64,000 nucleotides of DNA from a virus (IMGVR_UViG_3300045988_101018:61635-125634); one strand, 5' to 3'; shown: positions 9,835 through 43,494, counted from the first letter of the stretch. Notes: generated by a model from the letters alone, not told the origin. Numbers and translations: made by a program.

Positions 9835-10360
9835 CGCTGGTGTTATCGTCTAGGGTAATACCAAATGGAAGGAAAACGCCCTGACAGAAAGCATCTCCCT
9901 TGTTAATACGAATCTCCTTGGCTAGACAACTGTTATTTGTCAACTTTACAAAAATATTGCCTTCATTATCAGAGTCAAAGTAATCGCCATCAATAATAGA
10001 TACAGTGTTTGCCATTGACAAACCGTATTTGAAACCAAGTCCACTACGCGGGAATCCCATCAGAACCCAGCCATCATACATCTCACAGCGAATACCAGTC
10101 GGAATCTTAATGGAGTCGTTAGGCTCAAGAACAAAGCTCATTGGAGAAAAGAAATCATAACCTGCACTCTGAGCTGTGGCACGCTTAGGGAGCTTGATAC
10201 CATTATAGATATTGCGAAGATGCTTCTCAAGCTTATCGTTATCAGTCTCGTCCTTTAGGGCATCGAAGGTATCAAGCCAATCATCGTGGAACTGATTGTA
10301 GGATACCTTAGAGAACTCAGCCATACGCTTCATATAAATCACCTTTCTTTGTTGTCGCAT
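9794..10360 (-). CDS. dut: dUTP diphosphatase (dUTPase)
   Basis: dUTPase motifs AGYD, PRSGLG, IDGDY, GxxFxQG, RNGGLGSTD; start probably internal MKRMAEF preceded by AAAGAAAGGTGA. Confidence 0.85.
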   Translation of the reverse strand: MRQQRKVIYMKRMAEFSKVSYNQFHDDWLDTFDALKDETDNDKLEKHLRNIYNGIKLPKRATAQSAGYDFFSPMSFVLEPNDSIKIPTGIRCEMYDGWVLMGFPRSGLGFKYGLSMANTVSIIDGDYFDSDNEGNIFVKLTNNSCLAKEIRINKGDAFCQGVFLPFGITLDDNTSDVRNGGLGSTDAK

Positions 10361-10378
10361 ATAACGTTAATTATTATA
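10357..10378 (-). promoter_or_regulatory. early motif copy 1 (minus-strand reading TATAATAATTAACGTTATATGC) upstream of dut
   Basis: -10-like TATAAT directly followed by TTAACGTTATATGC, then RBS AAAGAAAGGTGA. Confidence 0.5.
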
Positions 10379-10936
10379 CAGTACAATCTTATTTGTTGCT
10401 AGAGTTTTTTGAACATTTATTACACGCTGATTTGAACTTCCACACCACTTTAAAGATATGTCATTAAGCTCATCAACATATTTACCATCGACAACAACAT
10501 CGCACATAGAAACAATGTTCTTTCGAGCTGTCTTAACTTTAACAGTCTTAAAAAAGTCTAATGGGTTTAAATCATTTAACATAGCTGGCTTAAAGATTTG
10601 TTCCCATGTAAATCCAGTATACAGCCAGATTTTCTTGTCTGGAAACTTGGCTTTAATGTCTTTGATGAGAGAAAGAACATCGTATACATTTTCAGGCTCA
10701 AGCGGCTCTCCACCAAGGATGGTTACTCTGGCAACAAACGACTGCGCAACAAGCTTAAGAAACTCTTCTTTAGTCTGCTTAGTCCATTCTTTGCCACCAG
10801 TAAATCCCCATGTCTCACTGTTAAAACAGTTTTTACAATGGGCGCGGCACCCTTGTACAAAAAGAGAAACGCCGATGCCGCTGCCATTTGAAATATCCAT
10901 CTTGCGAATTAATGCATACCTAATTTTAATCACCAT
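10367..10936 (-). CDS. nrdG: anaerobic ribonucleotide reductase activating protein NrdG (radical SAM)
   Basis: VQGCRAHCKNC = CxxxCxxC cluster at N-terminus; directly downstream of nrdD; true start probably at 10900 (MDISNGSG). Confidence 0.85.
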   Translation of the reverse strand: MVIKIRYALIRKMDISNGSGIGVSLFVQGCRAHCKNCFNSETWGFTGGKEWTKQTKEEFLKLVAQSFVARVTILGGEPLEPENVYDVLSLIKDIKAKFPDKKIWLYTGFTWEQIFKPAMLNDLNPLDFFKTVKVKTARKNIVSMCDVVVDGKYVDELNDISLKWCGSSNQRVINVQKTLATNKIVLYNN

Positions 10937-11045
10937 CTTCCGCTGGCATATCGTCTACATGAAGGACACGCTCTTTAATCTCTTGAGTGCGTCCAGCATT
11001 CCAGAAGTTACTTCCAATGTCCTTACTACCCTCGGTTTCCCGATA
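10926..11045 (-). CDS. nrdD: nrdD exon 2 (C-terminal 39 aa: YRETEGSKDIGSNFWNAGRTQEIKERVLHVDDMPAEDGD)
   Basis: translated by hand; continues the glycyl-radical motif RRTCG|Y and matches NrdD C-terminal NAG...E..RV.H; no start codon of its own. Confidence 0.6.
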   Translation of the reverse strand, partial: YRETEGSKDIGSNFWNAGRTQEIKERVLHVDDMPAEDGD

Positions 11046-11710
11046 TTTATTAGGGGAGTAGACTATACAATCTAATCATTACCAATACGTTAAAGCCCAC
11101 TTATGAAACGACCAGTTTCTTCATCTCGTTTTAAATTACCAAGCGATACTGCATAGCCAACATTTTCTTTTGTGGTACACCACTCTAGATTCTCTGCCCT
11201 ATTGTCATCTCTTTGGCAATTTTTATGATTAACCACATTTTTATTATCTGGATTCGGAATAAAGTATTTCGCAACTAACCTATGAACATATAAGTCTTTG
11301 CGTTTCCCAGTTGACATCTGCCTACAACATATTCTCATATATCCATTTTTTGTTGGCCTTGGATTTATTTCGTATAATTCTGTGGTTTTGTCGTTCCTTC
11401 TTCTATTTCCCTTACCTAAATTACAATATACCTTTCCGTCATCAGAAATAAAGTATCCATCAAAATCTTCTATTGGCTTCATCATGCGCATCACCTCATT
11501 AGAGGTAATGATTAGTCGGTATTATAGTCGTTGAAGGTTTCTCCTATTTAGGAGACTTCCCTGCGTTTGATTACCCAATTCTTAACGATGTTACCATACC
11601 AAGTCCGTTACTACTCGCCGCAATTATATTACTATAATTGTTTGGTTGTTAAGACTCTAAGGGCTTCCCCGCAATTTAACCGATTTAACGTGGACTACAT
11701 TTTACTTCAA
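11046..11710 (-). mobile_element. intron-like intervening sequence in nrdD (probable group I intron) carrying an HNH endonuclease ORF
   Basis: ~665 nt between nrdD exon 1 (ends RRTCG) and exon 2 (starts YRETEG); boundaries approximate, ribozyme core not verified. Confidence 0.5.
11090..11494 (-). CDS. HNH homing endonuclease (intron-encoded)
   Basis: 134 aa; VNHKNCQRDDNRAENLEWCTTKEN HNH motif. Confidence 0.8.
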   Translation of the reverse strand: MMRMMKPIEDFDGYFISDDGKVYCNLGKGNRRRNDKTTELYEINPRPTKNGYMRICCRQMSTGKRKDLYVHRLVAKYFIPNPDNKNVVNHKNCQRDDNRAENLEWCTTKENVGYAVSLGNLKRDEETGRFISGL

Positions 11711-13891
11711 TCCACATGTTCTGCGTGCCACGCTCATTTTATCATGGTCGCGGTTGCCACAGTTGGGGCATTCCCAAACAAGCTCGCCAGTATCCTTATC
11801 CTCTACAATAAGGATCTCCTTGTCCCAACCGCACACCATACAATAATCGCTCTTTGTATTCAGCTCAGCATACATAATATTGTCATAGATAAACTGAATA
11901 ATCTGAATCACTGCATCGATATTGTTTGTTAGATTTGGCACCTCAACATAGCTAATGGCACCGCCCTGAGAAAGCTTCTGGAACTTAGACTCGATAGCAA
12001 GCTTGCTAAACGCATCGATGTGTTCAGTAACATTAACATGATAAGAGTTGGTAATATAATCCTTATCAGTGATACCCTCGATTACACCAAAGCGCTTCTT
12101 TAAACACTTTGCAAATTTGTATGTGGTAGATTCAATTGGGCTACCGTATGGACTGTAATCAATGTTCTCTGCTTCCTTCCATTGATTGCACTTATCGGTA
12201 AGAGCCTGCATTACCTCAAGTCCAAACTTCTCACCAATATCACCATCTGTATGGCTATGACCAGTCATATACTTTACACACTCATAAAGCCCAGCGTATC
12301 CAAGTGAAATTGTTGAATATCCATTGTAAAGAAGCTTGTCAATCTTTTCACCCTTGTCCAAGCGAGCAAAAGCGCCATGCTGCCAAAGGATAGGTGCTAC
12401 ATCAGATGGAGTACCCATGAGCCTATTATGACGTGCCTGTAGCGCCTTGTGACAAAGTTCAGTGCGCTCATCAAAAAGCTTCCAGAACTTATCAAAGTCG
12501 CCGCCAGACGATAGTGCAACATCAGGAAGGTTGATTGTCACAACACCTTGATTTAGGCGACCATAATACTTCGGCTTGCCATCATAGTTCTTAGCCTTTG
12601 CAATGTTATCATATCCATTACCACTACGGTCTGGGGTAAGGAACGAGCGGCACCCCATACAAGGATAACAATCCCCATTTCCAACCTCTTCGCCCTTAGA
12701 TAGCTTATATTCCTTCATCTTCTTTTCAGAAATATAATCAGGCACCATACGCTTTGCGGTACACTTGGCAGCAAGCTTAGTGAGATAGAAATACTTATCG
12801 CCCTCATGGATATTATCATCCTCAAGGACATAAAGCAGCTTCGGGAATGCAGGCGTTACCCATACGCCCTTCTCATTCTTAACGCCCTGAATGCGCTGAT
12901 TAAGAACCTCTTCAATAACTAGAGCAAGGTCGTTCTTAGTTTGCTCATCTTTTGCTTCGTTAAGATACATGTTCACAGAAAGGAATGGAGCCTGTCCATT
13001 GGTTGTCATAAGTGTTACAACTTGATACTGAATAGTCTGAACGCCGCGCTTAATCTCGTCCTTCACCATAGACTCGACAATATCATTGTAATTGGCAATC
13101 TCGTCATCTGTCTTAGGCTCATGTCCGACAAACTCAACATATGTATCCATCGCCTGCTTCTTAATCTTCTGTCGACTCACGTCAACAAAAGGAGCAAGAT
13201 GTGTAAGGCTAATTGTCTGTCCACCATACTGACTTGATGCAACCTGAGCAATAATCTGAGTGGCGATATTGCAAGCGGTGGCAAAGCTATGCGGCTTCTC
13301 AATCATAACATTAGAGATAACAGTGCCATTCTGAAGCATGTCTTCTAGGTTAATTAGGCAGCAATTACTGAGAGCATTCTGCCCAAAATAATCAATGTCA
13401 TGAAAATGAATGATGCCAGCTTCATGAGCTTCAACAACATCCTCTGGTAGCAAAAAGCGCTTGGAGATATCTTCACTTACAACGCCAGCCATATAATCTC
13501 GTTGAGTGGTGACAAGACTGGCATTCTTATTTGAGTTTTCGTTATTCCAATAATCGCTGTCTCCGCTTAGCAGCTCCATAATTGTTTCATCTGTTGTATT
13601 GACCTCACGAATAATCTTACGCTTATAACGGTACTCAACGTAATGAGAAGCCACATCTTTGCGCGAGGTTGACATAAGCTTGTTCACAACCATGTCTTGA
13701 ATATCCTCAACGGACATTTTCTCTTTCTTGATATTTGCGATTTCATTTGAAATCTTATTTGCAATTTTATTTGCGTCCTCGGTAACATCGCCATCGACTT
13801 CAATAAATGCTTTCTTAATAGCGTTTGAAATCTTGTTCTTGTCAAAAGCGTCTTCTCGTCCATTTCTCTTAATAACAAACATCATACGCAT
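11711..13891 (-). CDS. nrdD: anaerobic ribonucleoside-triphosphate reductase NrdD, exon 1 (ATP-cone + catalytic barrel, ends at glycyl-radical RRTCG)
   Basis: 727 aa; N-terminal ATP-cone (VIKRNGREDAFDKNKI), CxxC zinc ribbon CPNCGN, RRTCG glycyl radical motif then an in-frame stop 2 codons later. Confidence 0.9.
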
Positions 13892-13976
13892 TACCTCCTA
13901 ATTAAAGCATATAACTTTATTTGATACAATTAAATATTATACAGCATTTAGCCACTAATATACATAAGAATATAAA

Positions 13977-14681
13977 TTAATATTCAAAAATATTTCTGTT
14001 GTATACCTTGATAGTTTTAATGGGACTGTCCCAATCTTTTAAACAGTAAGACATGTCACCGTGGAACTTAATATCCTCATTCAGCGCATCTGAATCAACG
14101 ATAAATTCACTCATACATCCATTGTGCTTTGTGATGATATTATCTGAATCGGTATCTACATCAGCCTTTTGATCTCCCAAAATACACGGGATAACAGTAC
14201 CATTTTCAAGTATAATATCAAAATACTGACCAACATCAGATGTAAAATATGTACCGATAGCCACGATATATCTGCTATCAGCCATCCTAATACCGTATTC
14301 GCCAGTCTCAGCATAATGCTGTTGTAGCCTGTACTGTTTAGAATCGGTATTAGTTATCGTTCTATAATCCATAAAAGATTTAAATCCACTATTCTTAGGA
14401 GCATCATAAGTCTCGTAGCTTACATATTTTGCAGTTAAATCAGCGTATTCATCATCAGACTCTTCTGCTTTCTCTTTGTCTTTAATAATTACAACACTTG
14501 TATCATCGCTATCCTTGCCATCATTGTCACTATGAACTGGTTGAAATACGAAGTACAAAATACTAAATAAAAGAACCGCAAATATACTCAACATACCAAT
14601 AGACACTAGAATATCTTTATTCTTCAATCCAATCACCTCTTTGCATATAACATTAGGAGTTTGCAGTATGTATAATACCAC
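13977..14681 (-). CDS. membrane-anchored hypothetical protein (N-terminal TM helix, C-terminal globular domain)
   Basis: 234 aa ORF; likely TTG start near 14614 after RBS AAGAGGTGA; hydrophobic MLSIFAVLLFSILYFVF segment. Confidence 0.5.
   Translation of the reverse strand: MVLYILQTPNVICKEVIGLKNKDILVSIGMLSIFAVLLFSILYFVFQPVHSDNDGKDSDDTSVVIIKDKEKAEESDDEYADLTAKYVSYETYDAPKNSGFKSFMDYRTITNTDSKQYRLQQHYAETGEYGIRMADSRYIVAIGTYFTSDVGQYFDIILENGTVIPCILGDQKADVDTDSDNIITKHNGCMSEFIVDSDALNEDIKFHGDMSYCLKDWDSPIKTIKVYNRNIFEY
14643..14665 (-). promoter_or_regulatory. early motif copy 2 (TATTATAC...CTAATGTTATATGC) upstream of membrane-protein gene
   Basis: same arrangement; flanked by inverted repeat GGAGTTTG/CAAACTCC. 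Confidence 0.45.
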
Positions 14682-14696
14682 AAACTCCTATTAATA

Positions 14697-20140: not shown

Positions 20141-20154
20141 ATATGCACCCTCTC

Positions 20155-20187
20155 AATAAAAAATTAGGGGAAACAAACGTCTCCCCT
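20155..20187 (-). terminator. rho-independent terminator (AGGGGA...TCCCCT + U-run on minus strand)
   Basis: hairpin read directly; followed on minus strand by AATTTTTTATT; just upstream of polymerase RBS. Confidence 0.55.
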
Positions 20188-20234
20188 AAGTATAGCATAT
20201 ATTCGCTTTAATTTGCCTGTGTTTTATTAAAATA

Positions 20235-24441: not shown

Positions 24442-25391
24442 TTACTGCTTCATAAAACTAAGGATCCATGCAATTACGTCAACAGTCCAACCATTGCCGA
24501 TCGCCTTGACCCTGTTGCTCCTAACCCAACCTTCTGTATACCCATCAGGCAGCGTTTGAAGGCGCTCTAGCTCGGTGCAAGTCAAACGTCTAATCGTATT
24601 GTCGTAATACACAGATGCATCGCAGGCACAATCAAGAGTAGATGACTTCTGCTTAATCACACGACCACGCCGAGTCTTGCTAGTCGGGAATGATAGATTA
24701 ACGCCATCACCATTATGCGCTACAATATAACCCTTCTTGGTTGCTTGATTGATACGTAGCTCGCCATCAACTCGATTAACAATGGCAACAGCATTCTCTG
24801 GAAAGTATGAATCGAACATGATTCCCTTATGCTCAACCAATTCAACATCGGGATTGTCTTCAAGAATATCAAGCAGCTTAATACCCTTGTCCTTTGGCTT
24901 TTCAACATTGGGGATATTAGTCCAATATGTACGCCAACGATTTTGTGCGCTCATAAGTTTACTGTTAATCTCAATAGGCTCAACGCCAAGCTTATCGGTG
25001 ATAATATCTTTCCACACATCTTTCATCTTGACATTCTCAAATAGAAACAAGACATCTGGATTCTTTGTCTTAATGTCATTAAGAATATCAACGAATTCAA
25101 AAAATAGTTTACTGCGCTCATCCTTGAAATTAAGCATCATACCAGCACGAGAGAAGCCCTGACAAGGCGTGCCTGACAAAACCAAGTCGATATGCGGCAA
25201 ATCCCATTCACGCCACTTAGTAATATCACCAAGACGAATAATACCATCGTGGTTCTTCTTAGAAATAGCAATGGCATTCTAGTCAATCTCGCTTGAAAAA
25301 TACTTATTCACCTTGATGCCAGCGCGGTCAAGAGCGACCTTGCCACACGAAATACCATCACATAGATTTAAAACGTTAATACCATTGCTCA
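24442..25391 (-). pseudogene. DNA (cytosine-5) methyltransferase interrupted by an in-frame amber (TAG) codon at 25279-25281
   Basis: hand translation: GTG start after GGAGG, motif I VLNLCDGISCGKVAL, ..SSEID then TAG, then NAIAISKKN..GDI..DLVLSGTPCQGFS (motif IV), ENV (motif VI); Lys-to-amber (AAG>TAG) position. Confidence 0.6.
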
Positions 25392-25410
25392 CTGTATATC
25401 CTCCTACAAG

Positions 25411-26840: not shown

Positions 26841-26934
26841 ATCGTCTCCCTATACAAATAATGACCGCCTTATATACGGTCATTATTATATCACAATATT
26901 AAATTGAATTAGACGTTAAAGGTATGTTTTATTC

Positions 26935-27005
26935 TTTGATAATTCCAATATTTTTTGTTGCTTCCAATTGCTATTTGGAATTAACATTTTTATTGGAATT
27001 ATCAA
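26935..27005. promoter_or_regulatory. cluster of TTGGAAT/ATTCCAA palindromic repeats (4 copies) in the largest intergenic gap of the replication region
   Basis: aattccaat..cttccaattgctatttggaatt..attggaatt read directly. Confidence 0.35.
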
Positions 27006-27067
27006 ACTTTTAAAATCACGATTTTAAAGCTTTTTTCGTCAACAAAACCGCAGGTCAGAGCGTTGTT

Positions 27068-30154: not shown

Positions 30155-30206
30155 CTAAATATCACTCCTTTCACGTTTAGTCACTTATTAAAGTATAGCA
30201 CTATTT

Positions 30207-30223
30207 GCATATAACGTTAATAG
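30207..30223 (-). promoter_or_regulatory. early motif copy 3 (ATTAACGTTATATGC + TGCTATACT) upstream of primase
   Basis: read directly. Confidence 0.45.
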
Positions 30224-32730: not shown

Positions 32731-32871
32731 CTAGGAAAGAATAATGCCGTTCTTAGCCTTATTAATCTTACGGCGTAGCTTGCGCATAATGCCAACATTC
32801 TCGGAGTTCTTACCCTTGCGGTTGAGTAGCATCTGATAACGCTGCTCCATGACCTCAATAGACTGTGCCAT
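32731..32871 (-). CDS. small basic protein (~46 aa, MAQSIEVMEQRYQMLLNRKGK...)
   Basis: below ORF cutoff; RBS AAAGAAAGG 7 nt upstream of ATG. Confidence 0.4.
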   Translation of the reverse strand: MAQSIEVMEQRYQMLLNRKGKNSENVGIMRKLRRKINKAKNGIILS

Positions 32872-32952
32872 AATCAAACCTTTCTTTAGTACGTACAACC
32901 ATGCTACATTTTTCTATATTTTGTAGCACGGTTGTACATTATATCAGAATTA

Positions 32953-34107
32953 CTAAGAAATTAGAGCGAGAATCTTGTTTGCGTCCTCGATATTGTCAAT
33001 AGACTTGGGGTTGTCATACCCAAGATTCTTGACGGCTGCAAGAACTGGCTTAATCTTTGCAATGTCAGACTTGTTCTCAGTAAAGAAATCAACAATCTGA
33101 GCAACTACATCATCCACAGCAGCCTGAGACTTAGCCTGCTCTTCCTGCTCGGCAACGCGCTTCTCAAGCTCCTTCTCCTGCTTAGCCTGCTTCTTCTTAG
33201 CTGTATCAAGTGACACGCCAGACTTAGACTGCTCAGACTTGATTGCGTCTGTAAGCGCCTGAATAAATGCATCTGCATTCATATCAATCTCTGGAATGAT
33301 ATTAGCAAAACGAGAACCAGAATCAACAGCGTAGTTATCGTCACGGAACTTAATCTTGCGCGACTCTGACGCGACCTTGTTTACAGTCTCGTCCTTCTTT
33401 GTCACAGCGTTCTTGCGCCCAGTCTTCTCCTTGATAACATCACGGTCAATGTATGCTAGACCAAGGAAGTGTAGATTCTTCTTAAGCGCGTTAAAATAAT
33501 TCTGCTGCTGATCTGAAGTAAGAATCTGATAAGACTCACCAGAGACTACATCAGAAATCTCTTTCGTCTTAACATGCCCGATGATAATAGAAGCAACTCC
33601 AACATTACGAAGTCGAGCCATCATATCAAACATAATCTCAATGGCCTTTTTCTCACCGCGACCATAGCCAGACCACGCCTGATTAATGCTCTTTACACAC
33701 TTCTCGGCATGTCCGCTATTGCGGCACTCCTTGTTCCACATATCGATTGACTTCTGTTCCGCAATGTCAATCAGGTGGTCATATGTATCGAAAATTACCG
33801 CCTTAAGATTGGGATACTCGCTAGTCTTATTCTCGATAATATCCTCACAAACATCAGCTAGACCAGCGCTGTTTGTAAGCTCATCATAATCCATATCCCA
33901 CTCAGGACAGTTAATATAGTTAATTCCCTGAATGGCATCGGCTCCTCGCTCAGTGCCACATTCTAGGAACAGATAGCCGTCATCGCCTGCAAGCTTCTCA
34001 CAAACCTCTTTCATAAGGGTAGTCTTACCAACTTTAGACTCGCCAAGAAGACAAATGTTATATGCAAGAGGGTCTAAACGCACATTATTTTTTTTACCAA
34101 ACGCCAT
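32953..34107 (-). CDS. AAA_24-like phage ATPase (Walker A LLGESKVGKTT), replication/recombination module
   Basis: 384 aa; P-loop near N-terminus; Lys/Glu-rich C-terminal coiled region. Confidence 0.6.
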   Translation of the reverse strand: MAFGKKNNVRLDPLAYNICLLGESKVGKTTLMKEVCEKLAGDDGYLFLECGTERGADAIQGINYINCPEWDMDYDELTNSAGLADVCEDIIENKTSEYPNLKAVIFDTYDHLIDIAEQKSIDMWNKECRNSGHAEKCVKSINQAWSGYGRGEKKAIEIMFDMMARLRNVGVASIIIGHVKTKEISDVVSGESYQILTSDQQQNYFNALKKNLHFLGLAYIDRDVIKEKTGRKNAVTKKDETVNKVASESRKIKFRDDNYAVDSGSRFANIIPEIDMNADAFIQALTDAIKSEQSKSGVSLDTAKKKQAKQEKELEKRVAEQEEQAKSQAAVDDVVAQIVDFFTENKSDIAKIKPVLAAVKNLGYDNPKSIDNIEDANKILALIS

Positions 34108-34143: not shown

Positions 34144-34172
34144 GCGGGAGAGTTCAAACTTATCTCTCCCGC
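34144..34172 (-). promoter_or_regulatory. 9-bp perfect hairpin (GCGGGAGAG...CTCTCCCGC) in the 5' UTR of the ATPase gene, immediately downstream of early motif copy
   Basis: read directly; no U-run so not a canonical terminator. Confidence 0.4.
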
Positions 34173-34191
34173 ATATAACCTTAATAGTATA
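34171..34191 (-). promoter_or_regulatory. early motif copy 4 (TATACTATTAAGGTTATATGC) upstream of AAA ATPase gene
   Basis: read directly; followed by 5' UTR hairpin. Confidence 0.45.
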
Positions 34192-35372: not shown

Positions 35373-35396
35373 GGCATATAACATTAGTTATTATAT
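35373..35396 (-). promoter_or_regulatory. early motif copy 5 (GATATAATAACTAATGTTATATGC) upstream of SSB-like gene, adjacent to ACTAATGTA iterons
   Basis: read directly. Confidence 0.5.
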
Positions 35397-35435
35397 CATA
35401 AGTACAAACTAATCTAGCAGATAATCTAAAAATTT

Positions 35436-35469
35436 TTTACATTAGTCTACATTAGTTTTACATTAGTTT
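35436..35469. repeat. three direct repeats TACATTAGT(C/T)T (iterons) sharing the CTAATGT core of the early motif
   Basis: ttacattagtctacattagttttacattagttta read directly. Confidence 0.5.
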
Positions 35470-35470
35470 A

Positions 35471-35908
35471 TTACGCCATCAAATGCTGACATGCAACATA
35501 GTCGATAAGCTCGTCAAATGTATCGCACATGCGCGTTGTACACTCAATCAACCAAGGATGCAGCTCAACGTTATCTTCGTTCAATCCAGCAACGGGAATA
35601 CGATTCTCCTTGGCGATAGCAAGCTCCATAGCAGTACCGATTGACGAAGGCGAGTTGAAGTTTACAATAACCAAGTCAGACCTGCGGACATTATAAGTCT
35701 CAAGCTCAAACACTTCGCGTTCACTCTTATGAAGTTCTTCCTCTAAAGTGTAGTGCATCAAAGGATTGAAGAACACGGGCATATAATCATACCTATAAAA
35801 ATCAATGCTCTCAAGAATCTTAGTGCGCACGTCCTTATGCCATTGCCACTGCTCATCACGACTAAGCCCACTCATGCCACCAGCAAGATAAAGCAACTTA
35901 TTTTCCAT
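35471..35908 (-). CDS. nucleoside 2-deoxyribosyltransferase
   Basis: 145 aa; LYLAGGM and SIGTAMELAIA motifs of the NDT family. Confidence 0.8.
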   Translation of the reverse strand: MENKLLYLAGGMSGLSRDEQWQWHKDVRTKILESIDFYRYDYMPVFFNPLMHYTLEEELHKSEREVFELETYNVRRSDLVIVNFNSPSSIGTAMELAIAKENRIPVAGLNEDNVELHPWLIECTTRMCDTFDELIDYVACQHLMA

Positions 35909-36170
35909 TTACACCATCCTTAACAATCTTAAACATATCGGCGATATCATCCATCAAATCATAACGCTCGGTAGACACAGAACTCTTAGCGAACTGTCGA
36001 TTAACAGCATCTACATACATAGTGCAGACATAGATTGAAAAAACACAGGCACTACTTCACTTCCCACCTAAAATCACCAAGCTCACGTTCGACTTCTTTT
36101 CTCCAAGCCCAACGTTGCTTGTTGGCGATGCCGTTCCTGCCACCTGATAAGAGAATCTTGAATTTATCCA

Positions 36171-36917: not shown

Positions 36918-37807
36918 TATTCATTTACTTTCTTAAACATGTCCGCAATATCGTCCGTTATTGGGAATCGCTCTACAGATACGGAACTTTTTGCAAATTC
37001 TCGTTTAACACTATCTACGTATAAAGAAAATTTACCATCATCACCCATATAAAATTCTTTATAGTCTTTATCACTCATAAGGCGCTTAGGTTCAAGCTGC
37101 TTAATTGCAAGGTTATCAAAACTAATGCACTTAAACCAACCATCGTTCACAATCTTAGGTAGCATATCATAGAACTGGGATTTTAGATAATCAATTTGGC
37201 TACCGCACTCATCATATAGGGTTTTGCCACGCCTAAAATCCTTATATCCAAGAATGAGAATCTTCAAATCATTATTGGCAAGGGCTTCTAGACCGTCCAT
37301 ATGCACAATACCGTTAATAACATGAACAACAGCATTTGGAAATTGCTTGATTGCTTCAATGCAATTGCTATGACGGCCACCGATATATGAGATACCAAGA
37401 CCATAGATTAACTTATTATCAGTAAGCTCTTTTAGCAAATCAATATTCTGCATAAAGTGCATTTGATTCACCGTCATACTTGCGATAATCTTACGCTCTT
37501 TAAGATGCTCAAGAAACTCAATCAGGTCTGGATGGGTCAAAGGATTACCGCCACCGATTGCAACCTCGCTATAGGGAAACATGGTATCGATAAACGGAAG
37601 GTTCAGAATATCGCCATGCTTCCCATCTGGCGTTGAGTTCTCGTGGCACATGTTACACGCCATATCGCACCTGTTAGTAATCTTAAGGTCGATTGACTCA
37701 GGCTTGATTGGGTTAAATGAATCCTTATCATTCCACCTAATTTTAGTACCGTCTGAGAACATGGTACAGGTATAGTCGTTGTTCTTATAACTGCCAAGAA
37801 TCTTCAT
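36917..37807 (-). CDS. radical SAM domain protein (CDMACNMC cluster), function unknown
   Basis: 296 aa; CxxxCxxC near N-terminus; glycine-rich SAM-binding-like GGGNPL. Confidence 0.65.
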   Translation of the reverse strand: MKILGSYKNNDYTCTMFSDGTKIRWNDKDSFNPIKPESIDLKITNRCDMACNMCHENSTPDGKHGDILNLPFIDTMFPYSEVAIGGGNPLTHPDLIEFLEHLKERKIIASMTVNQMHFMQNIDLLKELTDNKLIYGLGISYIGGRHSNCIEAIKQFPNAVVHVINGIVHMDGLEALANNDLKILILGYKDFRRGKTLYDECGSQIDYLKSQFYDMLPKIVNDGWFKCISFDNLAIKQLEPKRLMSDKDYKEFYMGDDGKFSLYVDSVKREFAKSSVSVERFPITDDIADMFKKVNE

Positions 37808-37815
37808 TACTTCTC

Positions 37816-38288
37816 CTAGCGATATCCATATGCTCCGAATGCAATCATATCATCACCAGACGGAGTTGTAAAGGATGTCTCATACTGCTCTAGTTCGTCA
37901 TTATATCTACACCAATCATCATATGTATAGATACCTAGGTCGTACAGTCTTGAATCCTCGCGGCTAGACTCTACCTCTTCGTCATCGCTATACTCCAACA
38001 TGTCAACATCGACAGGAGTATACCATTGCTCATCTTTATACTTCTCTTCATAATACTTTGCGTACTTTTCGATAGCCTGCTTCACTGCTTCTTTATCATA
38101 GATTCCGCTTCCAACACCATCAGCAAAACAACGATTAAAAGAATAGCCATATCCATCTCCATCAACAAAATAATATTCACCATGATTACTCGAAACCCAT
38201 TTATTAAAATCGTCTTTCGTCATAATACATAGTGAGTGCGTTGAACTTGAATTAGTCTCGAACACACCAGCGCGAATCTGAATCATTA
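37816..38288 (-). CDS. hypothetical protein, paralog family MIQIR(A/N)GVFETNSSSTHS
   Basis: start trimmed to internal MIQIRAGVFE; tandem paralog of next gene. Confidence 0.45.
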
Positions 38289-38296
38289 TATAACAC

Positions 38297-38878
38297 CTAG
38301 TTTCCCTTATAGAAGTATTCGTATTTCTCTTCATCATGATTGGGGTTTGGCTCTTCCCAGCCGTTGTGCCAATCCGTATCCCACTTCCAGATAGTAGGCT
38401 CTGCGGCATTGCACATCATGCCACCCTCGTCATTGTCATTGCCAGTATACACATGACTATCGCTAAAGAGATAGCGAATCAGCATATCGTCATTGTCAAG
38501 CACTGCATGTACGAACTCATATGTATCATATCCGTGGTCGATATAGCCAACATCAAGCTCGTCCCATTCATTTCCATCACCATAATCATAGTGAACTGTC
38601 TTGGGCTTTTCAAACGTATAGGTGATACCATGAGCATCGAGAATATCCTTTAGCTTATCGAGAAGCCCGTCTTTGCCACTACGGTCAAGCTCATAGATTG
38701 CCGTGTATAGATAATCCGCTACATCGGCATCTCCATTCTCCCAGCCAAACTCTCCAAAATGAAAGTCAACATGGCAACCATCTGCATCAACAGGTTTCTT
38801 GGAGATACAAATGCTGTGCGTACTTGAGCTATTAGTCTCAAATACTCCATTGCGAATCTGAATCATATCAATCACCAC
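38297..38878 (-). CDS. hypothetical protein, paralog family MIQIRNGVFETNSSSTHS
   Basis: 193 aa; shares N-terminal 20-aa motif with 37816-38288. Confidence 0.5.
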   Translation of the reverse strand: MVIDMIQIRNGVFETNSSSTHSICISKKPVDADGCHVDFHFGEFGWENGDADVADYLYTAIYELDRSGKDGLLDKLKDILDAHGITYTFEKPKTVHYDYGDGNEWDELDVGYIDHGYDTYEFVHAVLDNDDMLIRYLFSDSHVYTGNDNDEGGMMCNAAEPTIWKWDTDWHNGWEEPNPNHDEEKYEYFYKGN

Positions 38879-38880
38879 TC

Positions 38881-39000
38881 ATCCCAAATACCATAGTCTT
38901 CATTCCCATACCTACGAAGTTCATCTTCCTTGTGGGAAATCTTACAGCACGTATATGATACCACAATTACCGCCACCATAACGATTGCAATTACTATCAT
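38881..39000 (-). CDS. small membrane protein (~39 aa, MIVIAIVMVAVIVVSY...)
   Basis: below cutoff; ATGA start/stop overlap with upstream gene. Confidence 0.35.
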
Positions 39001-39413
39001 GCTGCACCCACCTCATTTTTCCAATCAAAATCATCAAATACATTGCCAATGACCTCAATGATTAGATTAATGTCTTCGCCAAAGCTATAATACTTAGAAT
39101 GCTCCCAGTCAAACATGAAATAAGAAGCACGCTCTTCGACATATGCAATTTCGACAGTAATCGTATTGCCATCCTCATGTCCTTCTTCCATGTCAACTGT
39201 ACAGATATCGCCTTCATATAGCTCGACACCATGTTTATCCACAATTCCTAGGCTTTTGTGGAATAAGTACCTATCTTCAGGCAATTCCTTCAATTTTTGC
39301 CATCCGAACACAGCGTTTCCGCAGGTCAGAAGCTTGTTTTCTCCGCATGAAATTAGAATTTTATCGGGGTCTGCCCATTCACGATTTTTTAGATCAAAAA
39401 CCCTATACGACAT
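38997..39413 (-). CDS. hypothetical protein
   Basis: 138 aa ORF. Confidence 0.5.
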   Translation of the reverse strand: MSYRVFDLKNREWADPDKILISCGENKLLTCGNAVFGWQKLKELPEDRYLFHKSLGIVDKHGVELYEGDICTVDMEEGHEDGNTITVEIAYVEERASYFMFDWEHSKYYSFGEDINLIIEVIGNVFDDFDWKNEVGAA

Positions 39414-39425
39414 ATAAAAACTCCT

Positions 39426-40367
39426 TTAGTGTGCGGCCTTATCTGCTTCATGTAGAATCATAACACACTGCATGAAGTAATCGCCCCACAATTTTTTATA
39501 TTTGTTATACATCTTCTCGTTGTTATCCCTCTCCCACACCCAAGGTTTCATGTGATTTGAGATAAGCGCTGAAACAAATAAGGAACTGATGCCAGCAACA
39601 TATGTAAAGAACAGGCTGTCATATGCACCTACATGTTCATGTCCATAATAGTGGGCTATGTCTGTAGTTTCGCCTTTGTTATTCTTAAATGTCTTACAAA
39701 ATGGCTTGCCGCAATCATGGATTAGCGCCGCATCTATTATGGCTCCAATTGAAGCGTGATGGAACCAATCGCTGCCATATAGCCAATACGCAGCCTTCAT
39801 ACAATGCACACCAAGGGTTGACTCGTGGTGCGGATTATCTTGATTATAATTCTTATAACTTAGCGCCCAAGACATTGGAAGTAATGAGCCGTTGCAGCTA
39901 CCTTTCCAATACTCAATGCTAATACAGTCAAAAGATTCATAATGATACGGTGTGTCAAAGCTTTTGTACATACGCTCAATAATATAATCTGGTACACGTC
40001 TGTCTCTGCTCGCATTATTTCTCAGACATTGCTCATATGGAGTAGCGGCGATGATACATTCTTTCCGACAAGGGATGCGTTTCAGCTCTTGCAAAAAAGC
40101 AATGCGTCTTTTAGAGCTTAGATTGCAAGCGTCATAGATAACATTATTACCTTCTTTTAATGCCGTCTTAATACGCTTATGTAGCTCTATAAACAACTCA
40201 TGGTTATGCGTCTGGTCGTTAATATCTCCGTAAAGTTCTTCTCTTAATTCATCTGAGCTGAATATAATATAATTATTTTCTTTGGCTAGATTATAAGCGA
40301 TGGTGGACTTGCCACTTGCAGGCAAACCCACCATCATCACTAGCACTGGCTTTGTGCTAGTCTCCAT
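39426..40367 (-). CDS. polynucleotide kinase (P-loop) fused to HD-domain phosphohydrolase (RNA end-healing enzyme, Pnk-like)
   Basis: 313 aa; N-terminal GLPASGKST Walker A + SSDELRE; C-terminal HD-domain residues H..HD..H..H..D. Confidence 0.7.
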   Translation of the reverse strand: METSTKPVLVMMVGLPASGKSTIAYNLAKENNYIIFSSDELREELYGDINDQTHNHELFIELHKRIKTALKEGNNVIYDACNLSSKRRIAFLQELKRIPCRKECIIAATPYEQCLRNNASRDRRVPDYIIERMYKSFDTPYHYESFDCISIEYWKGSCNGSLLPMSWALSYKNYNQDNPHHESTLGVHCMKAAYWLYGSDWFHHASIGAIIDAALIHDCGKPFCKTFKNNKGETTDIAHYYGHEHVGAYDSLFFTYVAGISSLFVSALISNHMKPWVWERDNNEKMYNKYKKLWGDYFMQCVMILHEADKAAH

Positions 40368-41546
40368 TTATTCACCAGCTTTAAGCAAGAATTTGCGGGA
40401 GACGTTCTTGAAACTGCGCTGTCCATCCTGACTACGATACACAAAGCCCTCGCGTAGACACTTCTTATTGATTACACTCTTGCCATCAGCAGACTGCTTG
40501 AACTCCTCAAAGTCATCAGCATCGGGCAAGATATAGTTATCATCAATAATAGGCACGAATGGAATATCGTACTCGGCTAGAATCTTCTTTGCTTCGACAG
40601 AACCAAGACGCTCTCCATCAAAGATTAGATTGAATGCTGCAAAGCGGCGCTCATCAAGCTTGTACTTGTTACCCTGTACGGACTCACCGTATGTCTCACC
40701 CTGTAGTACAACGTGCTTATGGTTATGCTTCTTTGCAATATCCTTAAGAGCATCCTCGACATTGTACTTGAAAGCCATTTCCCAGTAGACGTTTCCGATA
40801 CCAGACATATCAGAAACAAAGTTCTTCTGGTCTGCATCCATCTGACGAACATTGCGTGAACACACACCAAAATCAGGCTTACGACCACTCAAATCAAGGA
40901 AGAACGTAGTAGAAGTGCCATCAATCTTCTCAGTCACAACATAAGGATTCTTGTCTTCGAGCATGAACATAACATTCTCGATGCGATCCTCATCTGTTTT
41001 CTTTACCCATACAGGCCAATTCTTAGGATTGTCTTTCTTACGACCAAAGAAAACAAACAGTAGCTTGCGACCCCATGCACGCTTCATAAGCCACTTCCAC
41101 CACTTCTTCTTGGCAAGCTTAGAATTGCGTGCGCACATATTATTGTACTTGGCGTTGGGATTAGACTTAGCCTTACGAGCATTATCCTCGGCTACATAAT
41201 ACTTAATACCAAGCAGATTTGTCACGTCCTCGTGAACGTCCTTATCCTTAATCTCAGGGAACACATCAATGGGCATGAGAAGTCCCTGCGAATAGACCTT
41301 ACACATCTTAATGGTCTTAACCTTATAATGCTTTTTCTCAAGGAATGCAAAGCGCTCATCGTTACTAGGAACAAGCGAATCAGTCTCGATATACAAAGCC
41401 TTATCGCCTACCTTAAACTGATTCTTCTGGGCGATAATCCACCAGCCGCCGACACGTGCATGTTCAACACGGTCATAGTTTGGAATAGGCTTAATCTCCT
41501 CAACGATAACTGGATAAGCCAATGCACGCTCGCCATTTACTAGCAT
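40368..41546 (-). CDS. ATP-dependent polynucleotide (RNA) ligase, KxDG nucleotidyltransferase with N-terminal extra domain
   Basis: 392 aa; VVTEKIDGTSTTFF motif I lysine at ~215; stop/start overlap with Pnk-like gene. Confidence 0.6.
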   Translation of the reverse strand: MLVNGERALAYPVIVEEIKPIPNYDRVEHARVGGWWIIAQKNQFKVGDKALYIETDSLVPSNDERFAFLEKKHYKVKTIKMCKVYSQGLLMPIDVFPEIKDKDVHEDVTNLLGIKYYVAEDNARKAKSNPNAKYNNMCARNSKLAKKKWWKWLMKRAWGRKLLFVFFGRKKDNPKNWPVWVKKTDEDRIENVMFMLEDKNPYVVTEKIDGTSTTFFLDLSGRKPDFGVCSRNVRQMDADQKNFVSDMSGIGNVYWEMAFKYNVEDALKDIAKKHNHKHVVLQGETYGESVQGNKYKLDERRFAAFNLIFDGERLGSVEAKKILAEYDIPFVPIIDDNYILPDADDFEEFKQSADGKSVINKKCLREGFVYRSQDGQRSFKNVSRKFLLKAGE

Positions 41547-41629
41547 ATCGTAACCTTTCTACTCTAGTAAACTTGTTGTTATCATATTATAGCAACTGTT
41601 TTAGTTTCAAACACGTCAAAGCAACGGAT

Positions 41630-42796
41630 TTAGTTGCTATTCCTTATAATCTTCATAATCTTTACTACTTTTTCAATAACATAATCAATGGCTTCATATG
41701 TAATGTCAGAAGAAATCGTAAATCTAATAGACCTTGCACATTCTTCATCCGTTAATCCAAGGGCTTTGAGAACATAAGACGGCTTCTTAGAATGACTATT
41801 GCAGGCAGAACCAGTGCTGCATTGAATATCATCTAGGTCAAGCATATACAAAAGCTCTTCTGAACCAATGCCTTCAGGCAACCTTACATTAATATTATTT
41901 GGCAGTCTTGACGCTAAACTGCCATTTGGAACACATCCTCTTGTGACAAGCTCACGCATGAAATAATTACGCTTCATACATATGGCATCTTTATTTTCCA
42001 TTTCCTCAGATGCGAGTTCAACGGCTTTCGCAAAGCCGACAATACCAGCAACATTTTCAGTTCCCCCTCTAAGTCCAGAATTCTGGCTACCATAGATAAT
42101 GGGCTGAATTTCAATGCCGTTTTTCTTGTATAAGAACCCAACCCCTTTAACACCTCCAATCTTATGTGCCGATGCGCTTAACATATCAATACCCATTTCC
42201 TTAACATCAATAGGAATCTGTCCAAAGGCTTGCGTTGCATCTACATGAAGAACGCCACCATATTTATGAACAATCTCAGAGACATCCACGATGTTCTGAA
42301 TAGTGCCAACCTCGTTATTCGCCATCTGAATCGACACTAAAACATCATAATAAGTAGGTTCTTCACGCTCTTCGAATACAGACTCAAGTTGGTCTACATC
42401 TACAAACCCAAATTCATCAACATCAAGATATGTTACATCACAATAGTAAGTACTGCTACCAAGTCGCTCCATAGCATCAACACATTCCATGATAGACTTG
42501 TGCTCAATCTTGGTTGTAACAATGGAAGTACTGGAAATATCCATCATACCAGCAAGCACATAACCCTGAATAGCCCAGCAATTGCTTTCAGAACTGCCAG
42601 AAGTGAAATAGATTTCATCTACATCCGCATTGATGAAGTTTGCAATCGTCTGGCGTGAATCTTCAATGGCGTGCTTGACCCTAGCGCCGCTACTATAAAT
42701 AGCAGAAGGATTATAAAACTCGTCCTTCAAATATGGCATCATGGCTTCAAGAACTTCTGTGTTAACCATAGTAGTTCCTGCATTGTCTAAGTACAT
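41630..42796 (-). CDS. cysteine desulfurase (NifS/IscS-like class V aminotransferase)
   Basis: 388 aa; PLP-lysine SASAHKIGG, active-site CSTGSACNS. Confidence 0.75.
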   Translation of the reverse strand: MYLDNAGTTMVNTEVLEAMMPYLKDEFYNPSAIYSSGARVKHAIEDSRQTIANFINADVDEIYFTSGSSESNCWAIQGYVLAGMMDISSTSIVTTKIEHKSIMECVDAMERLGSSTYYCDVTYLDVDEFGFVDVDQLESVFEEREEPTYYDVLVSIQMANNEVGTIQNIVDVSEIVHKYGGVLHVDATQAFGQIPIDVKEMGIDMLSASAHKIGGVKGVGFLYKKNGIEIQPIIYGSQNSGLRGGTENVAGIVGFAKAVELASEEMENKDAICMKRNYFMRELVTRGCVPNGSLASRLPNNINVRLPEGIGSEELLYMLDLDDIQCSTGSACNSHSKKPSYVLKALGLTDEECARSIRFTISSDITYEAIDYVIEKVVKIMKIIRNSN

Positions 42797-42898
42797 ACAT
42801 TAACTCCTTAACAATATGGAGAATAGCAGCGACTAGTATTCTATCAGAATACATATTATCCAAACCATTCTCCATATAATTTATATGTATTCTATTGT

Positions 42899-43453
42899 TT
42901 AGCAGTAAACCTTATTATAATAGTCATTACGATAAGGATTAAACTCACGATAGCGGCGCTTATGACTATGACGCGCTAAATCATCAAGATAATCATCAAC
43001 ATAATCTAGATAATCACTGTAAGTCTGAATGAGCTTATCCCAATAATCATCGTCCTCATCATCATGATTCTTGCGCTTCGGCTCATCCTTTACATCATCC
43101 TCGTCCTGAGAATCATATAGGTCGCAATGCTCGCAATCTCCATCGCAATCTTGCTCATCAACGACATCATCGCCATCGGAAACATCTGAATAATGGTATA
43201 GTTTGTTCTGTAGGAGATAGCCCTCAAGCTCCCACACCTTGCGCTCAATATTCTTCATGCAAATGTCAATACCCATATCTTCATCATAATTAGCAGGATC
43301 AACGCAAGAAGAAGATTCGACAATTACAAAACCATTTGGCAGCTGACATGCCACAATAGTACACTTATCAAATGCCTTGGTAATTGCAATATCGGAACTC
43401 TCAATAAGTTCATCTACAACAGCCTGAGTTACCGTATTCTTTGTACGTGCCAT
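42899..43453 (-). CDS. highly acidic early protein (candidate DNA mimic / anti-restriction)
   Basis: 184 aa; C-terminal half ~45% D/E with Tyr (DDEDDDYWDKLIQTYSDYLDYVDDYLDD); preceded by early motif. Confidence 0.5.
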   Translation of the reverse strand: MARTKNTVTQAVVDELIESSDIAITKAFDKCTIVACQLPNGFVIVESSSCVDPANYDEDMGIDICMKNIERKVWELEGYLLQNKLYHYSDVSDGDDVVDEQDCDGDCEHCDLYDSQDEDDVKDEPKRKNHDDEDDDYWDKLIQTYSDYLDYVDDYLDDLARHSHKRRYREFNPYRNDYYNKVYC

Positions 43454-43473
43454 AATAAATCACCTTTCTATTG

Positions 43474-43494
43474 GCATATAACCTTAATTATAAG
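43474..43494 (-). promoter_or_regulatory. early motif copy 6 (CTTATAATTAAGGTTATATGC) upstream of acidic-protein gene
   Basis: read directly; followed by RBS AAAGGTGA. Confidence 0.5.

Follow-up and report, generated by a model that had tools for sequence, protein, structure and literature searches.

In an uncultivated gut phage with a genome of 126 kb and a relationship to SPbeta, a short DNA word recurs in front of replication genes, which raises the question of what it controls and what reads it. The window, i.e. the whole stretch of 64,000 nucleotides analysed here, contains seven copies of the 13-base word TAAnGTTATATGC on the coding (minus) strand. Each precedes a minus-strand gene, and the seven genes behind the motif belong to DNA replication and nucleotide metabolism (Table 1). 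The sequence-only reading had reported six copies and missed the one before nrdD. Matches to GCATATAACNTTAA with at most one mismatch number seven, all on the plus strand, compared with 0.28 expected, and none of 100 shuffles reaches this count. The exact 9-mer GCATATAAC is likewise found seven times on the plus strand, at the left-hand coordinates of the seven copies in Table 1. Rather than occurring equally within coding regions, the motif is intergenic in all seven cases (intergenic DNA makes up 8.2% of positions 6035-46202; chance P ~3e-8), and a single inverted 9-mer lies in a coding region (34057-34065). Motif and gene orientation agree in 7 of 7 copies, and the ribosome-binding site follows at a distance of 2-50 nt, a wider range than the 10-40 nt initially assigned.

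Table 1. Positions of the motif copies and neighbouring features in the window.
Feature	Coordinates	Strand	Context
Copy 1 TAACGTTATATGC	10357-10369	-	23 nt before dUTPase start codon (ATG at 10333)
Extended -10-like box TGTATAAT	10373-10380	-	7 nt before G of copy 1
Copy 2 TAAAGTTATATGC	13907-13919	-	before nrdD, anaerobic ribonucleotide reductase (start 13891)
Extended -10-like box TGTATAAT	13936-13943	-	20 nt before G of copy 2
Copy 3 TAATGTTATATGC	14643-14655	-	ends 2-3 nt before ribosome-binding site; ORF start TTG 14627
Extended -10-like box TGGTATTAT	14672-14680	-	20 nt before G of copy 3
Extended -10-like box TGCTATACT	30192-30200	-	6 nt downstream of copy 4
Copy 4 TAACGTTATATGC	30207-30219	-	between DnaB-like helicase gene and primase gene (start 30154)
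Stem-loop GCGGGAGAG-N11-CTCTCCCGC	34144-34172	-	begins at GC of copy 5
Copy 5 TAAGGTTATATGC	34171-34183	-	before AAA_24 (YorG/Sak4-like) gene (start 34107)
Copy 6 TAATGTTATATGC	35374-35386	-	before phrog_2367 gene (start 35346), at yorF position
Extended -10-like box TGATATAAT	35390-35398	-	7 nt before G of copy 6
Three direct repeats of ACTAATGTA	35438-35467	-	upstream of copy 6, then TTTTAGATTAT repeats
Copy 7 TAAGGTTATATGC	43474-43486	-	before N4-gp49/Sf6-gp66 family gene (start 43453)
180-aa protein gene	43484-44026	-	variable acidic N-terminus, invariant C-terminal helix-turn-helix (sigma-region-4 / LuxR-GerE type)
Near-copy TAAAGTTAGATGC, 1 mismatch	48688-48700	-	in spacer of sigma-A-type promoter preceding ROOL RNA

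The motif is kept at the same slots in relatives of 68-93% protein identity. Across 14 non-redundant related loci the 10-nt core TAAnGTTATA occurs 63 times in forward and 8 times in reverse orientation, and in 49 of the 63 forward cores a ribosome-binding site and start codon lie at most 65 nt downstream. Copy 1 is conserved in six orthologous upstream regions and copy 7 in every relative lineage except L092; the counterpart of copy 3 in L062/L063 has decayed to GCCATATGT. GTTATA is invariant across all copies, and a further 8 nt upstream of the TAAnGTTATATGC consensus are more weakly conserved. Aligned over 14 non-redundant sites, the conservation forms a single block that spans roughly -11 to +8 counted from the G; a conserved -35 box is missing, and there is no information content between -35 and -25. 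The motif also precedes the YonO-type RNA polymerase gene of the same phage, outside the window, but is found neither in the early region (44-64 kb) nor in the 10 kb of tail genes left of the window. The motif is almost certainly a transcription control signal, familiar in kind and new in sequence. The earlier idea of a regulon-type cis element is borne out by orientation, position and cross-phage conservation; its sigma-like reader is not supported in the form proposed.

Conserved extended -10 boxes of the sigma-A type lie within 20 nt of six of the seven copies. A -10-like hexamer had been placed directly upstream of every copy, leaving the motif in the fixed position of a classical operator. 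The spacing in fact varies, with gaps of 4-7 nt or 20 nt or with the hexamer downstream, and some copies have no box. Measured to the G of GTTATATGC, the gaps are 7, 6 and 7 nt at copies 1, 5 and 6, and 20 nt at copies 2 and 3. At copy 4 a box is missing on the upstream side, and the TTAACG of the motif is located 17 nt upstream of a TATACT hexamer. Copy 2 and its box form the same cassette as in the relatives of group B, and the copy 3 box TGGTATTAT is enclosed by a 9-bp inverted repeat (AGGAGTTTG/CAAACTCCT). The TATAAT noted before copy 7 consists of the final two codons (Tyr-Asn) of ORF 43484-44026, the stop codon of which provides the first three bases of the motif. It is not conserved, reading TGTAAT, TGCAAT or TACAAT in relatives, where no sigma-A-type box is found near copy 7. 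By reading of the sequences, four of the five motif sites in L262 also have no such box nearby. The promoter ahead of the ROOL RNA is of the sigma-A type (TTGCAA-N17-TATAAT), and conservation of the near-copy in its spacer extends to L265, a distant phage.

The boxes bring in the main rival explanation, a possible though doubtful one, in which the motif would be an asymmetric operator lying across or right next to the extended -10 promoters, of the host sigma-A type, that serve the replication and nucleotide genes. A single phage regulator, either the helix-turn-helix protein 43484-44026 or another protein, would bind it and repress (or activate) these promoters as one regulon, as MrpR does at SPBRE and C1 in phage P1. 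A working precedent is SPBRE itself, a 15-bp element repeated in about ten promoter regions of SPbeta, to which ChAP-seq shows binding of MrpR, the master repressor (PMC10516654). In the SPBRE copies that we extracted from NC_001884, all of which follow gene orientation, the element is located in the -35/-10 spacer at yorE, yorZ, yonP and yosX, and downstream of the -10 box, abutting the ribosome-binding site, at yonX, yopM and yopV. SPBRE and the window motif are thus alike in being short, asymmetric, gene-oriented elements of intergenic promoter regions with a variable position relative to sigma-A boxes, and both are associated with a replication module and a YonO operon. The phage shares further SPbeta-type features, namely YonJ and YonG domains besides the YonO-type polymerase; its primase and polymerase similarity to SPbeta is distant, and the relative L230 has a YorH-family match. 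The boxes near 6/7 copies together with the near-copy in the ROOL spacer reproduce the SPBRE operator layout, an observation that speaks against the promoter reading developed below. The conserved ROOL near-copy, the invariance of both the helix-turn-helix and the motif, and a weak dyad, (A/G)TAAC-N7-GTTAT, which is clearest in L262 and group B, would also suit an operator.

However, the window's own copies show this dyad poorly, and where copies have no sigma-A box (copy 7 in relatives, the four L262 sites), a situation unlike that of SPBRE, an operator would have nothing to control unless it served as a roadblock. The cores differ (SPBRE AATATGTATA, window TAAnGTTATATGC), and TAAnGTTATA does not occur in SPbeta. 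Among the two recombinase-fold proteins encoded in the window we found no MrpR-like repressor by sequence comparison, BLASTP with YopR returning E = 2.8 for one and 0.056 for the other. A palindrome, TGTCCAC-N6-GTGGACA, present in four copies in a divergent control region just outside the window, is the likelier immunity site. The slot discussed below holds a full sigma factor in other phages, which would not be expected to bind DNA alone, and a sigma-family gene is present in the clade of this phage but not in SPbeta. An operator also leaves unexplained why the position of the leader hairpin goes with the motif's 3' edge. The operators of P1 C1 are asymmetric, about 17 bp long and dispersed over a large genome at replication and other lytic promoters; unlike these, the window copies all share gene orientation.

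ORF 43484-44026 had been proposed as a sigma-like factor, which cannot be upheld for a complete sigma since only a region-4 helix-turn-helix is detected. The protein scores 27.1 bits on TIGR02937 (cut-off 42.9), over residues 112-169 only, and aligns with 18 full sigma family members through its last 73 residues alone (hhalign, 99.7%). Further matches are phrog_351, phrog_1740 and phrog_5767, with a weak one to GerE. Among 12 homologues the last 47 residues (134-180) show little or no variation, and the N-termini differ by large insertions and deletions; homologues of 124 amino acids are too short for a region 2. An HMM of the sigma family's region 2 finds nothing in the window, and no region-2 ORF was found in 82 of the phage's 126 kb. 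Of the features of a sigma-70 family factor, the protein has the region 4.2 helix-turn-helix and positional orthology with proven family members, but no detectable region 2, the domain of core binding and -10 recognition.

Its syntenic counterparts in L230, L234 and L235 are complete small sigma factors. P0123, P0125 and P0129 reach 47-63 bits on TIGR02937 against the same cut-off (P0123 59, P0125 63), and Sigma70_r2 matches are on record for P0123, P0125 and, faintly, P0129. The slots of P0123 and P0125 have the gene order of the window slot (dCMP deaminase, sigma, gp49_66, Aminotran_5). The motif directly follows the full sigma genes of L230, L234, L262 and L265, as at copy 7, and in L235 it lies a few nucleotides past the stop of the sigma gene. 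The link to a sigma family is thus real. Relatives of group B have no sigma gene at the slot and L021 has only an 83-aa region-2 fragment; both keep TAAnGTTATA, an observation that counts against the promoter reading.

We favour, tentatively and at a probability of roughly 40%, the reading that the motif is the single-block core of a phage-specific class of 'middle' promoters with no -35 box. In TAAnGT, the T, A and T of a -10 hexamer would be preserved; TATAT would serve as discriminator, and the RNA would begin at or beside the terminal G/C of the motif. At copy 3 and in L021a, 1-3 nt separate the motif from the ribosome-binding site, so any start must lie within or at the end of the motif. 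Replication, nucleotide metabolism and the YonO-type late RNA polymerase would be transcribed from units that begin with such promoters, which would become active later than the early sigma-A promoters. The ancestral reader may have been the host core polymerase with a small phage sigma encoded just upstream of the first copy. The sequences show the motif itself, its orientation and conservation, its linkage to the sigma gene and the hairpins beside it, whereas start site, timing and reader are inferred. In the lineage of this phage the sigma gene retains the region-4 half only, so that recognition would need region 2 of host sigma-A or another partner in addition to the 43484-44026 protein. 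The proposed reader is thus incomplete in this phage.

One block with no -35, strict orientation and a position directly after full sigma genes speak for a promoter, as do the absence of the motif from the early region and tail flank and its presence before the YonO-type polymerase gene. Known single-element promoters of phage sigma factors, and the use of GTTATA as a -10 box elsewhere, are precedents on the same side. On the other side, TAAnGT is a weak -10, and the register relative to the start is assumed.

Single-element promoters of this kind are known from other phages, e.g. T4 late TATAAATA with gp55, and the promoters of SPO1 gp28 and gp33/34. The gp36 sigma of phiEco32 reads the single element AATGTA centred at -11.5, and the phage sigma gene itself is transcribed from an early promoter of the host type (PMC12276001). 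The window motif resembles them in having one block near -10 and no conserved -35 while heading middle or late genes. It differs in that its presumed cognate protein has lost the -10-reading region and in that conservation runs through the presumed discriminator and start.

Two further known promoter types resemble the motif in part. GTTATA is also the -10 box of BotR and TetR, where it is combined with a -35 TTTACA (TcdR family, group 5 sigma), and ATGTTATATG is common to copies 3 and 6 and to TATGTTATATGTTATATGTAA, the ha promoter of C. botulinum (PMC3610760). At 16-18 nt upstream of the motif, however, a box resembling TTTACA is missing. Full sigma factors of the related phages match best to a general sigma-70/ECF model; SigK, SigE and SigH are weaker and sub-threshold, and no TcdR-type model is among their matches. 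The second type is the Gram-positive extended -10 or '-16 region' form of sigma-A promoters, TRTGnTATAAT. At L007, L009, the ROOL promoter and L265 the -10 hexamer follows directly, making TATGC of the motif a perfect TRTGn, whereas in the seven window copies TATGC is not followed by anything resembling TATAAT. The motif itself does not qualify, because in the TGn register the hexamer is TATATG, in which the invariant G replaces the needed final T. The T of TG is present in 2/7 window copies, and at copy 3, where there is no room, a start 7 nt further on would be within the ribosome-binding site. The L014 sequence TAATGTTATAAT is an ordinary extended -10, preceded by TTGACA at a distance of 17 nt.

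The hairpin reported after one copy is real, with -20.3 kcal/mol and z = -3.55 at copy 5. AAA_24 leaders of relatives form non-homologous stems of -14 to -20 kcal/mol, and in 7 of 11 distinct folded leaders the hairpin starts 7-12 nt after the G of GTTATA, which lends indirect support to RNA 5' ends at the motif's 3' edge. In Firmicutes, stem-loops near the 5' end stabilise mRNA. These hairpins would fit a processed 5' end equally well, i.e. an RNA-level 5'-leader or inter-cistronic element (UAAnGUUAUAUGC). The motif would then either be processed by an endoribonuclease, leaving defined 5' ends protected by hairpins, or be bound by a translational regulator. We consider this unlikely, despite the constant sense orientation just upstream of ribosome-binding sites and the frequent location at gene junctions, where the TAA of the motif is the stop codon of the upstream gene. 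Copies 1, 2, 3, 5 and 6 could be transcribed from the upstream extended -10 promoters, but at copy 4, L007b, L009 and the ROOL promoter the nearest -10 comes only after the motif, which would then enter RNA by read-through only. There is also no conserved pairing partner: pairing with the start region is seen at copies 1 and 2 only, not in orthologues, with z between -0.75 and -2, and no Rfam family matches at any copy.

A single block ending at the presumed start with no -35 also resembles the promoters of phage-encoded polymerases, and just outside the window the phage encodes a 966-aa YonO-like protein (Pfam PF05183). That the motif is the promoter of this single-chain RNA polymerase is nevertheless very improbable. 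In SPbeta, transcription by YonO is limited to the late operon and begins at a single site upstream of yonK (PMC5467207). The window motif does not occur in SPbeta; in the present phage it stands before middle genes and before the YonO gene itself, and the 10 kb of tail genes have none.

The three ACTAATGTA iterons described earlier beside the motif are present as well, and relatives keep them.

The repeated element upstream of the minus-strand replication and nucleotide genes is a cis-acting control signal for the DNA-metabolism regulon of the phage; it is real, non-random and conserved, and the general idea of the sequence-only reading, a regulon-type control signal, holds. On the coding (minus) strand the motif reads TAAnGTTATATGC. 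The plus-strand pattern GCATATAACNTTAA, with at most one mismatch, gives seven matches, all on the plus strand, against 0.28 expected, and none of 100 shuffles reaches seven. The earlier count of six had overlooked the copy before nrdD. All seven copies are intergenic, in a region (6035-46202) with an intergenic share of 8.2% (chance P ~3e-8). A relaxed scan revealed one convincing near-copy and, in the early region and in coding DNA in gene orientation, no further motif above chance. To the right of the window, ~150 nt upstream of the YonO-type RNA polymerase gene, there is an exact copy, and the HU-like gene is preceded by a near-copy; both are in gene orientation, and the 10 kb of tail genes to the left contain none. 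In an exact-pattern scan of IMG/VR for ATTAANGTTATATGC, chance matches dominated among the matches listed, and the scan yielded no genome-wide map.

Positions of the motif copies and of other features (window coordinates unless a locus is named; box distances refer to the extended -10 box TGnTATAAT relative to the motif)
Feature	Position	Strand	Remarks
Motif copy 1 (exact 9-mer)	10357		dUTPase downstream; box 6-7 nt upstream
Motif copy 2	13907		nrdD; box 20 nt upstream
Motif copy 3	14643		small ORF, TTG start 14627; box 20 nt upstream
Motif copy 4	30207		primase; box 6 nt downstream
Motif copy 5	34171		AAA_24 (Sak4/YorG-like) ATPase; box 6-7 nt upstream
Motif copy 6	35374		phrog_2367 protein; box 6-7 nt upstream
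Motif copy 7	43474		N4-gp49-family protein
Inverted exact 9-mer	34057		sole inverted copy; within coding region
Near-copy TAAAGTTAGATGC	48688-48700		relaxed scan
'Sigma-like' gene	43484-44026		180 aa; directly upstream of copy 7
Region-2 ORF of L021	1052-1303 of IMGVR_UViG_3300000304_000005		83 aa; adjoins HNH endonuclease gene
Late transcription genes	1-7575 of L316	window +	966-aa YonO-type RNA polymerase (PF05183); HU-like; YonJ-like (YonJ_N); YonG-like (YonG_N/C)
TGTCCAC-N6-GTGGACA, four copies	7576-7900 of L316	L316 reverse	around TATAAT boxes; ~last 300 nt before 279-aa gene
Extended -10 boxes with hairpin	8539-8618; 20141-20234; 26841-27067; 32859-32952		5' arm begins 0-5 nt past hexamer
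Early promoter family	51406-51555; 52304-52853; 57577-57721		CTACTTGA(C/T)A(A/G)CTAC, N17, TAnAAT
ROOL RNA	48052-48614	-	Rfam RF03087, 288 bits; full length
ROOL promoter	48705-48710; 48682-48687		TTGCAA; TATAAT
tRNA array	46421-47548	-	nine genes, one with unusual anticodon loop
Five ORFs	1566-5411	+	four of ~270-280 aa; one of 155 aa (2418-2885)
Tyrosine-recombinase genes	475-1371; 6035-7231		flank the five ORFs
TTTGCGTA-type repeats	5412-6034		five or six copies; 623-nt non-coding stretch
(A/G)TGGAGAA direct repeats	61521-61740		~10 copies, dense
ACTAATGTA x3	35438-35467		upstream of copy 6
TTTTAGATTAT x2-3	35400-35437		upstream of copy 6
Extra ACTAATGTA	52736-52744		after early promoter
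DNA methyltransferase	24442-25410		in-frame stop in 'intergenic' 25201-25410

GenBank phages show no nucleotide similarity to the window in near or distant search modes; its DnaE-type polymerase shares 45-50% identity with the enzymes of Clostridioides phage pCD1602_4 and Bacillus siphophages (~165 kb). The window corresponds to positions ~25418-89417 of a 125.7-kb human-gut contig (ENA ERZ27272354, k119_171382), and the related contigs measure 100-160 kb and fall into bins of Clostridia, Lachnospiraceae and Bacilli MAGs. A scan of isolate and MAG genomes returned phage-size MAG contigs only and no integration site. On the minus strand an early block (64 to 44 kb) with small ORFs, tRNAs and the ROOL RNA precedes a DNA-metabolism block (44 to 6 kb); the plus strand carries the late genes. 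In this gut phage the four genes just to the right of the window, on the strand opposite to these blocks, form a late transcription apparatus like that of SPbeta. The gene order helicase, primase, polymerase matches that of yorI, yorJ and yorL in SPbeta, and in the syntenic relative L230 a YorH-family gene lies directly upstream of the helicase homologue; together with the YonO, YonJ and YonG genes this identifies a distant SPbeta-like phage. The motif links this late apparatus with a sigma-family gene that is missing in SPbeta. It is very unlikely to be a promoter read by the YonO-type polymerase, because YonO of SPbeta uses a single late start and the YonO gene itself has the motif upstream. 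SPbeta does not contain the motif, and TTATATGC near yonK is unrelated.

Conservation was analysed in related loci retrieved by homology to the helicase, the exonuclease-V-like helicase, the phrog_12787 protein and the 'sigma-like' helix-turn-helix protein. The exact 9-mer occurs there 130 times forward versus 19 times in reverse, and the core TAAnGTTATA 63 versus 8 times in 14 non-redundant loci, with a ribosome-binding site and start codon at most 65 nt after the core in 49 of the 63 forward copies. Upstream regions were also collected by homology of the downstream gene, whether or not the motif was present; the motif sits at equivalent slots within variable flanks, with losses of single copies (copy 3 in L062 and L063, copy 7 in L092). 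Across 14 non-redundant sites, conservation extends from about -11 to +8, counted from the G of GTTATA (tAAywAnTAAnGTTATATGC), and the -35 position shows no conservation, neither a TTTACA-type nor another -35 box. A set of relatives termed group B keeps TAAnGTTATA without the TGC. The motif offers a handle on gene expression in a common uncultivated phage family (~100-170 kb) found in the human gut and similar environments. Because it stands at the start of the replication and nucleotide transcription units and before the YonO-type late polymerase gene, it can serve to annotate operons and temporal classes across hundreds of related contigs.

Six of the seven copies have a conserved extended -10 box of the sigma-A type nearby, at differing positions. 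Copies 2 and 3 match a cassette recurrent in group B, TGTATAAT-N6/7-GTAAC-N3-TAAnGTTATA. In the related loci L007, L009 and L265 and in the ROOL promoter the -10 hexamer stands directly 3' of the motif, so that TATGC corresponds to the Gram-positive TRTGn element. In relative L262, sigma-A-type boxes are on our reading missing near four of five sites; several relatives likewise have none near copy 7. In front of copy 7, TATAAT encodes the last two residues (Tyr-Asn) of the upstream ORF, and TGTAAT, TGCAAT or TACAAT stands there elsewhere. The proposal that a -10 hexamer is immediately followed by GTTATATGC is therefore correct for some copies but not in general. Further extended -10 boxes, each with a strong hairpin at once after the hexamer, recur as a promoter-plus-hairpin design in the middle region, and a second conserved promoter family with an extended -35 context, distinct from the motif, is found in the early region.

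Three layouts need explanation: the motif alone, the motif after a sigma-A box, and the motif before or inside a sigma-A promoter. The motif is of a known kind, either a phage-specific promoter or a dispersed operator. With a probability of roughly 40% we favour an independent promoter, with the RNA starting at the 3' edge of the motif. This would account for all three layouts, for the strict orientation and for the location 1-3 nt before some ribosome-binding sites, and would fit the ancient linkage of the motif to the sigma gene. Precedents are phiEco32 gp36 and the GTTATA -10 box of BotR and TetR. A weakness is that the protein of this phage has no domain reading a -10 element. Also in line with a promoter, 7 of the 11 distinct AAA_24 leaders folded have a stable hairpin that starts 7-12 nt after the G of GTTATA, although the hairpin sequences are unrelated; RNAalifold was dropped in favour of single-sequence folds, as MAFFT could not align the non-homologous stems.

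An action of the motif in the transcript would agree with its sense-strand position; this appears improbable, given that some copies lie upstream of their nearest -10 box and that neither a conserved pairing partner nor an Rfam family is found. Pairing with the start-codon region was seen for copies 1 and 2 only, is lost in orthologues and has no significant z-scores.

SPbeta itself strongly suggests a dispersed operator of the type of SPBRE, the repeated element bound by the repressor MrpR (YopR). The SPBRE copies from NC_001884 likewise vary in layout and are oriented with their genes, and their targets are the replication module and the yonO operon. The conserved motif-like spacer of the ROOL promoter points the same way. 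However, some motif copies are without any promoter, no MrpR homologue was found in a comparison of YopR with the window's two recombinases, and classical palindromic operators are present in a divergent control region outside the window. We regard an operator as a serious but on balance unlikely candidate; if confirmed, it would show the SPBRE principle a second time, with an unrelated sequence.

The product of the 'sigma-like' gene yields weak matches only, all C-terminal. Homologues have 124, 145-149 or 180 aa, with the C-terminal 47 residues (134-180) invariant or nearly so and variable, acidic N-termini. The AlphaFold2 model of the 180-aa protein (mean pLDDT 50; the helix-turn-helix alone confident) and its Foldseek matches to sigma factors (all E > 0.02) were not used as evidence. 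A profile search of 1.8 billion representative proteins identified remote homologues of 165-185 aa, which exceed the TIGR02937 cut-off and whose N-termini are a textbook region 2 (NHNLIY...YYDxLAIGLCKAA...FSTxA); in the profile-profile comparison with the window family the last 73 residues alone align. Of the sigma-like factor proposed earlier, the region-4 part is related to sigma factors, but no region 2 is detected, and in this detail the sequence-only reading does not hold. Two full sigma factors from relatives (P0123 and P0125) occupy the same syntenic slot with the motif after their stop codons, and L230 has the motif also at the slots of copies 5 and 6. A third (P0129) likewise has the motif downstream, on a 935-nt contig too short for synteny. 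Across the broader sigma family (179 IMG/VR contigs) the motif lies 3' of the sigma gene in this clade only. What is unusual is that the associated sigma gene has decayed to a region-4-only protein, yet is strictly conserved.

Relative L021 has at the sigma slot the 83-aa region-2 ORF alone (E = 1.7e-18 with an HMM of the family's own region 2; no Pfam match), which could be a truncated or split sigma; five motif copies are still present. Group B has no sigma gene at this slot. The 82 kb covered in this genome (record positions 15892-98305 of 125,707) contain no region-2 ORF. A search for a separate region-2 partner found none in the window, in its flanks (L223 and L316) or in family loci other than L021. 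The variants in the family (full length, region 4 only, region 2 only, absent) represent a natural experiment on the phage/host division of promoter recognition. A more far-reaching reading, which we consider improbable, is that of a phage sigma reduced in this lineage to a stand-alone region 4 with a new acidic N-terminal domain. It would take over the site of host sigma-A region 4 at the polymerase flap and so shut down those early and host promoters that need a -35 box. The hybrid enzyme, with region 2 from the host and region 4 from the phage, would be sent to the -35-less motif and to extended -10 promoters; the L021 ORF would be the complementary half in a sister lineage. If true, this would be 'sigma appropriation' in which a sigma fragment takes the role of an AsiA/MotA-type pair.

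Several further features were observed. The ROOL RNA lies upstream of the nine-tRNA array, and its promoter is of the sigma-A type with a motif-like spacer kept even in the distant phage L265. The TGTCCAC-N6-GTGGACA palindromes in the divergent control region resemble classical repressor operators and possibly form the immunity switch. Dense direct repeats of GTTGAAAAC follow further right on the reverse strand of L316; these and the (A/G)TGGAGAA array are iteron-like and near the early/late divergence point. The ACTAATGTA and TTTTAGATTAT repeats are conserved across the window family with copy numbers differing between relatives. The TTTGCGTA-type repeats, located where plus- and minus-strand gene blocks converge, could be a replication origin or recombinase site. 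The DNA methyltransferase frame appears interrupted, with N-terminal coding sequence extending into the 'intergenic' stretch. The three long plus-strand ORFs scanned among the five flanked by recombinase genes all match tail-fibre or tape-measure families, and this shufflon-like arrangement could switch host range.
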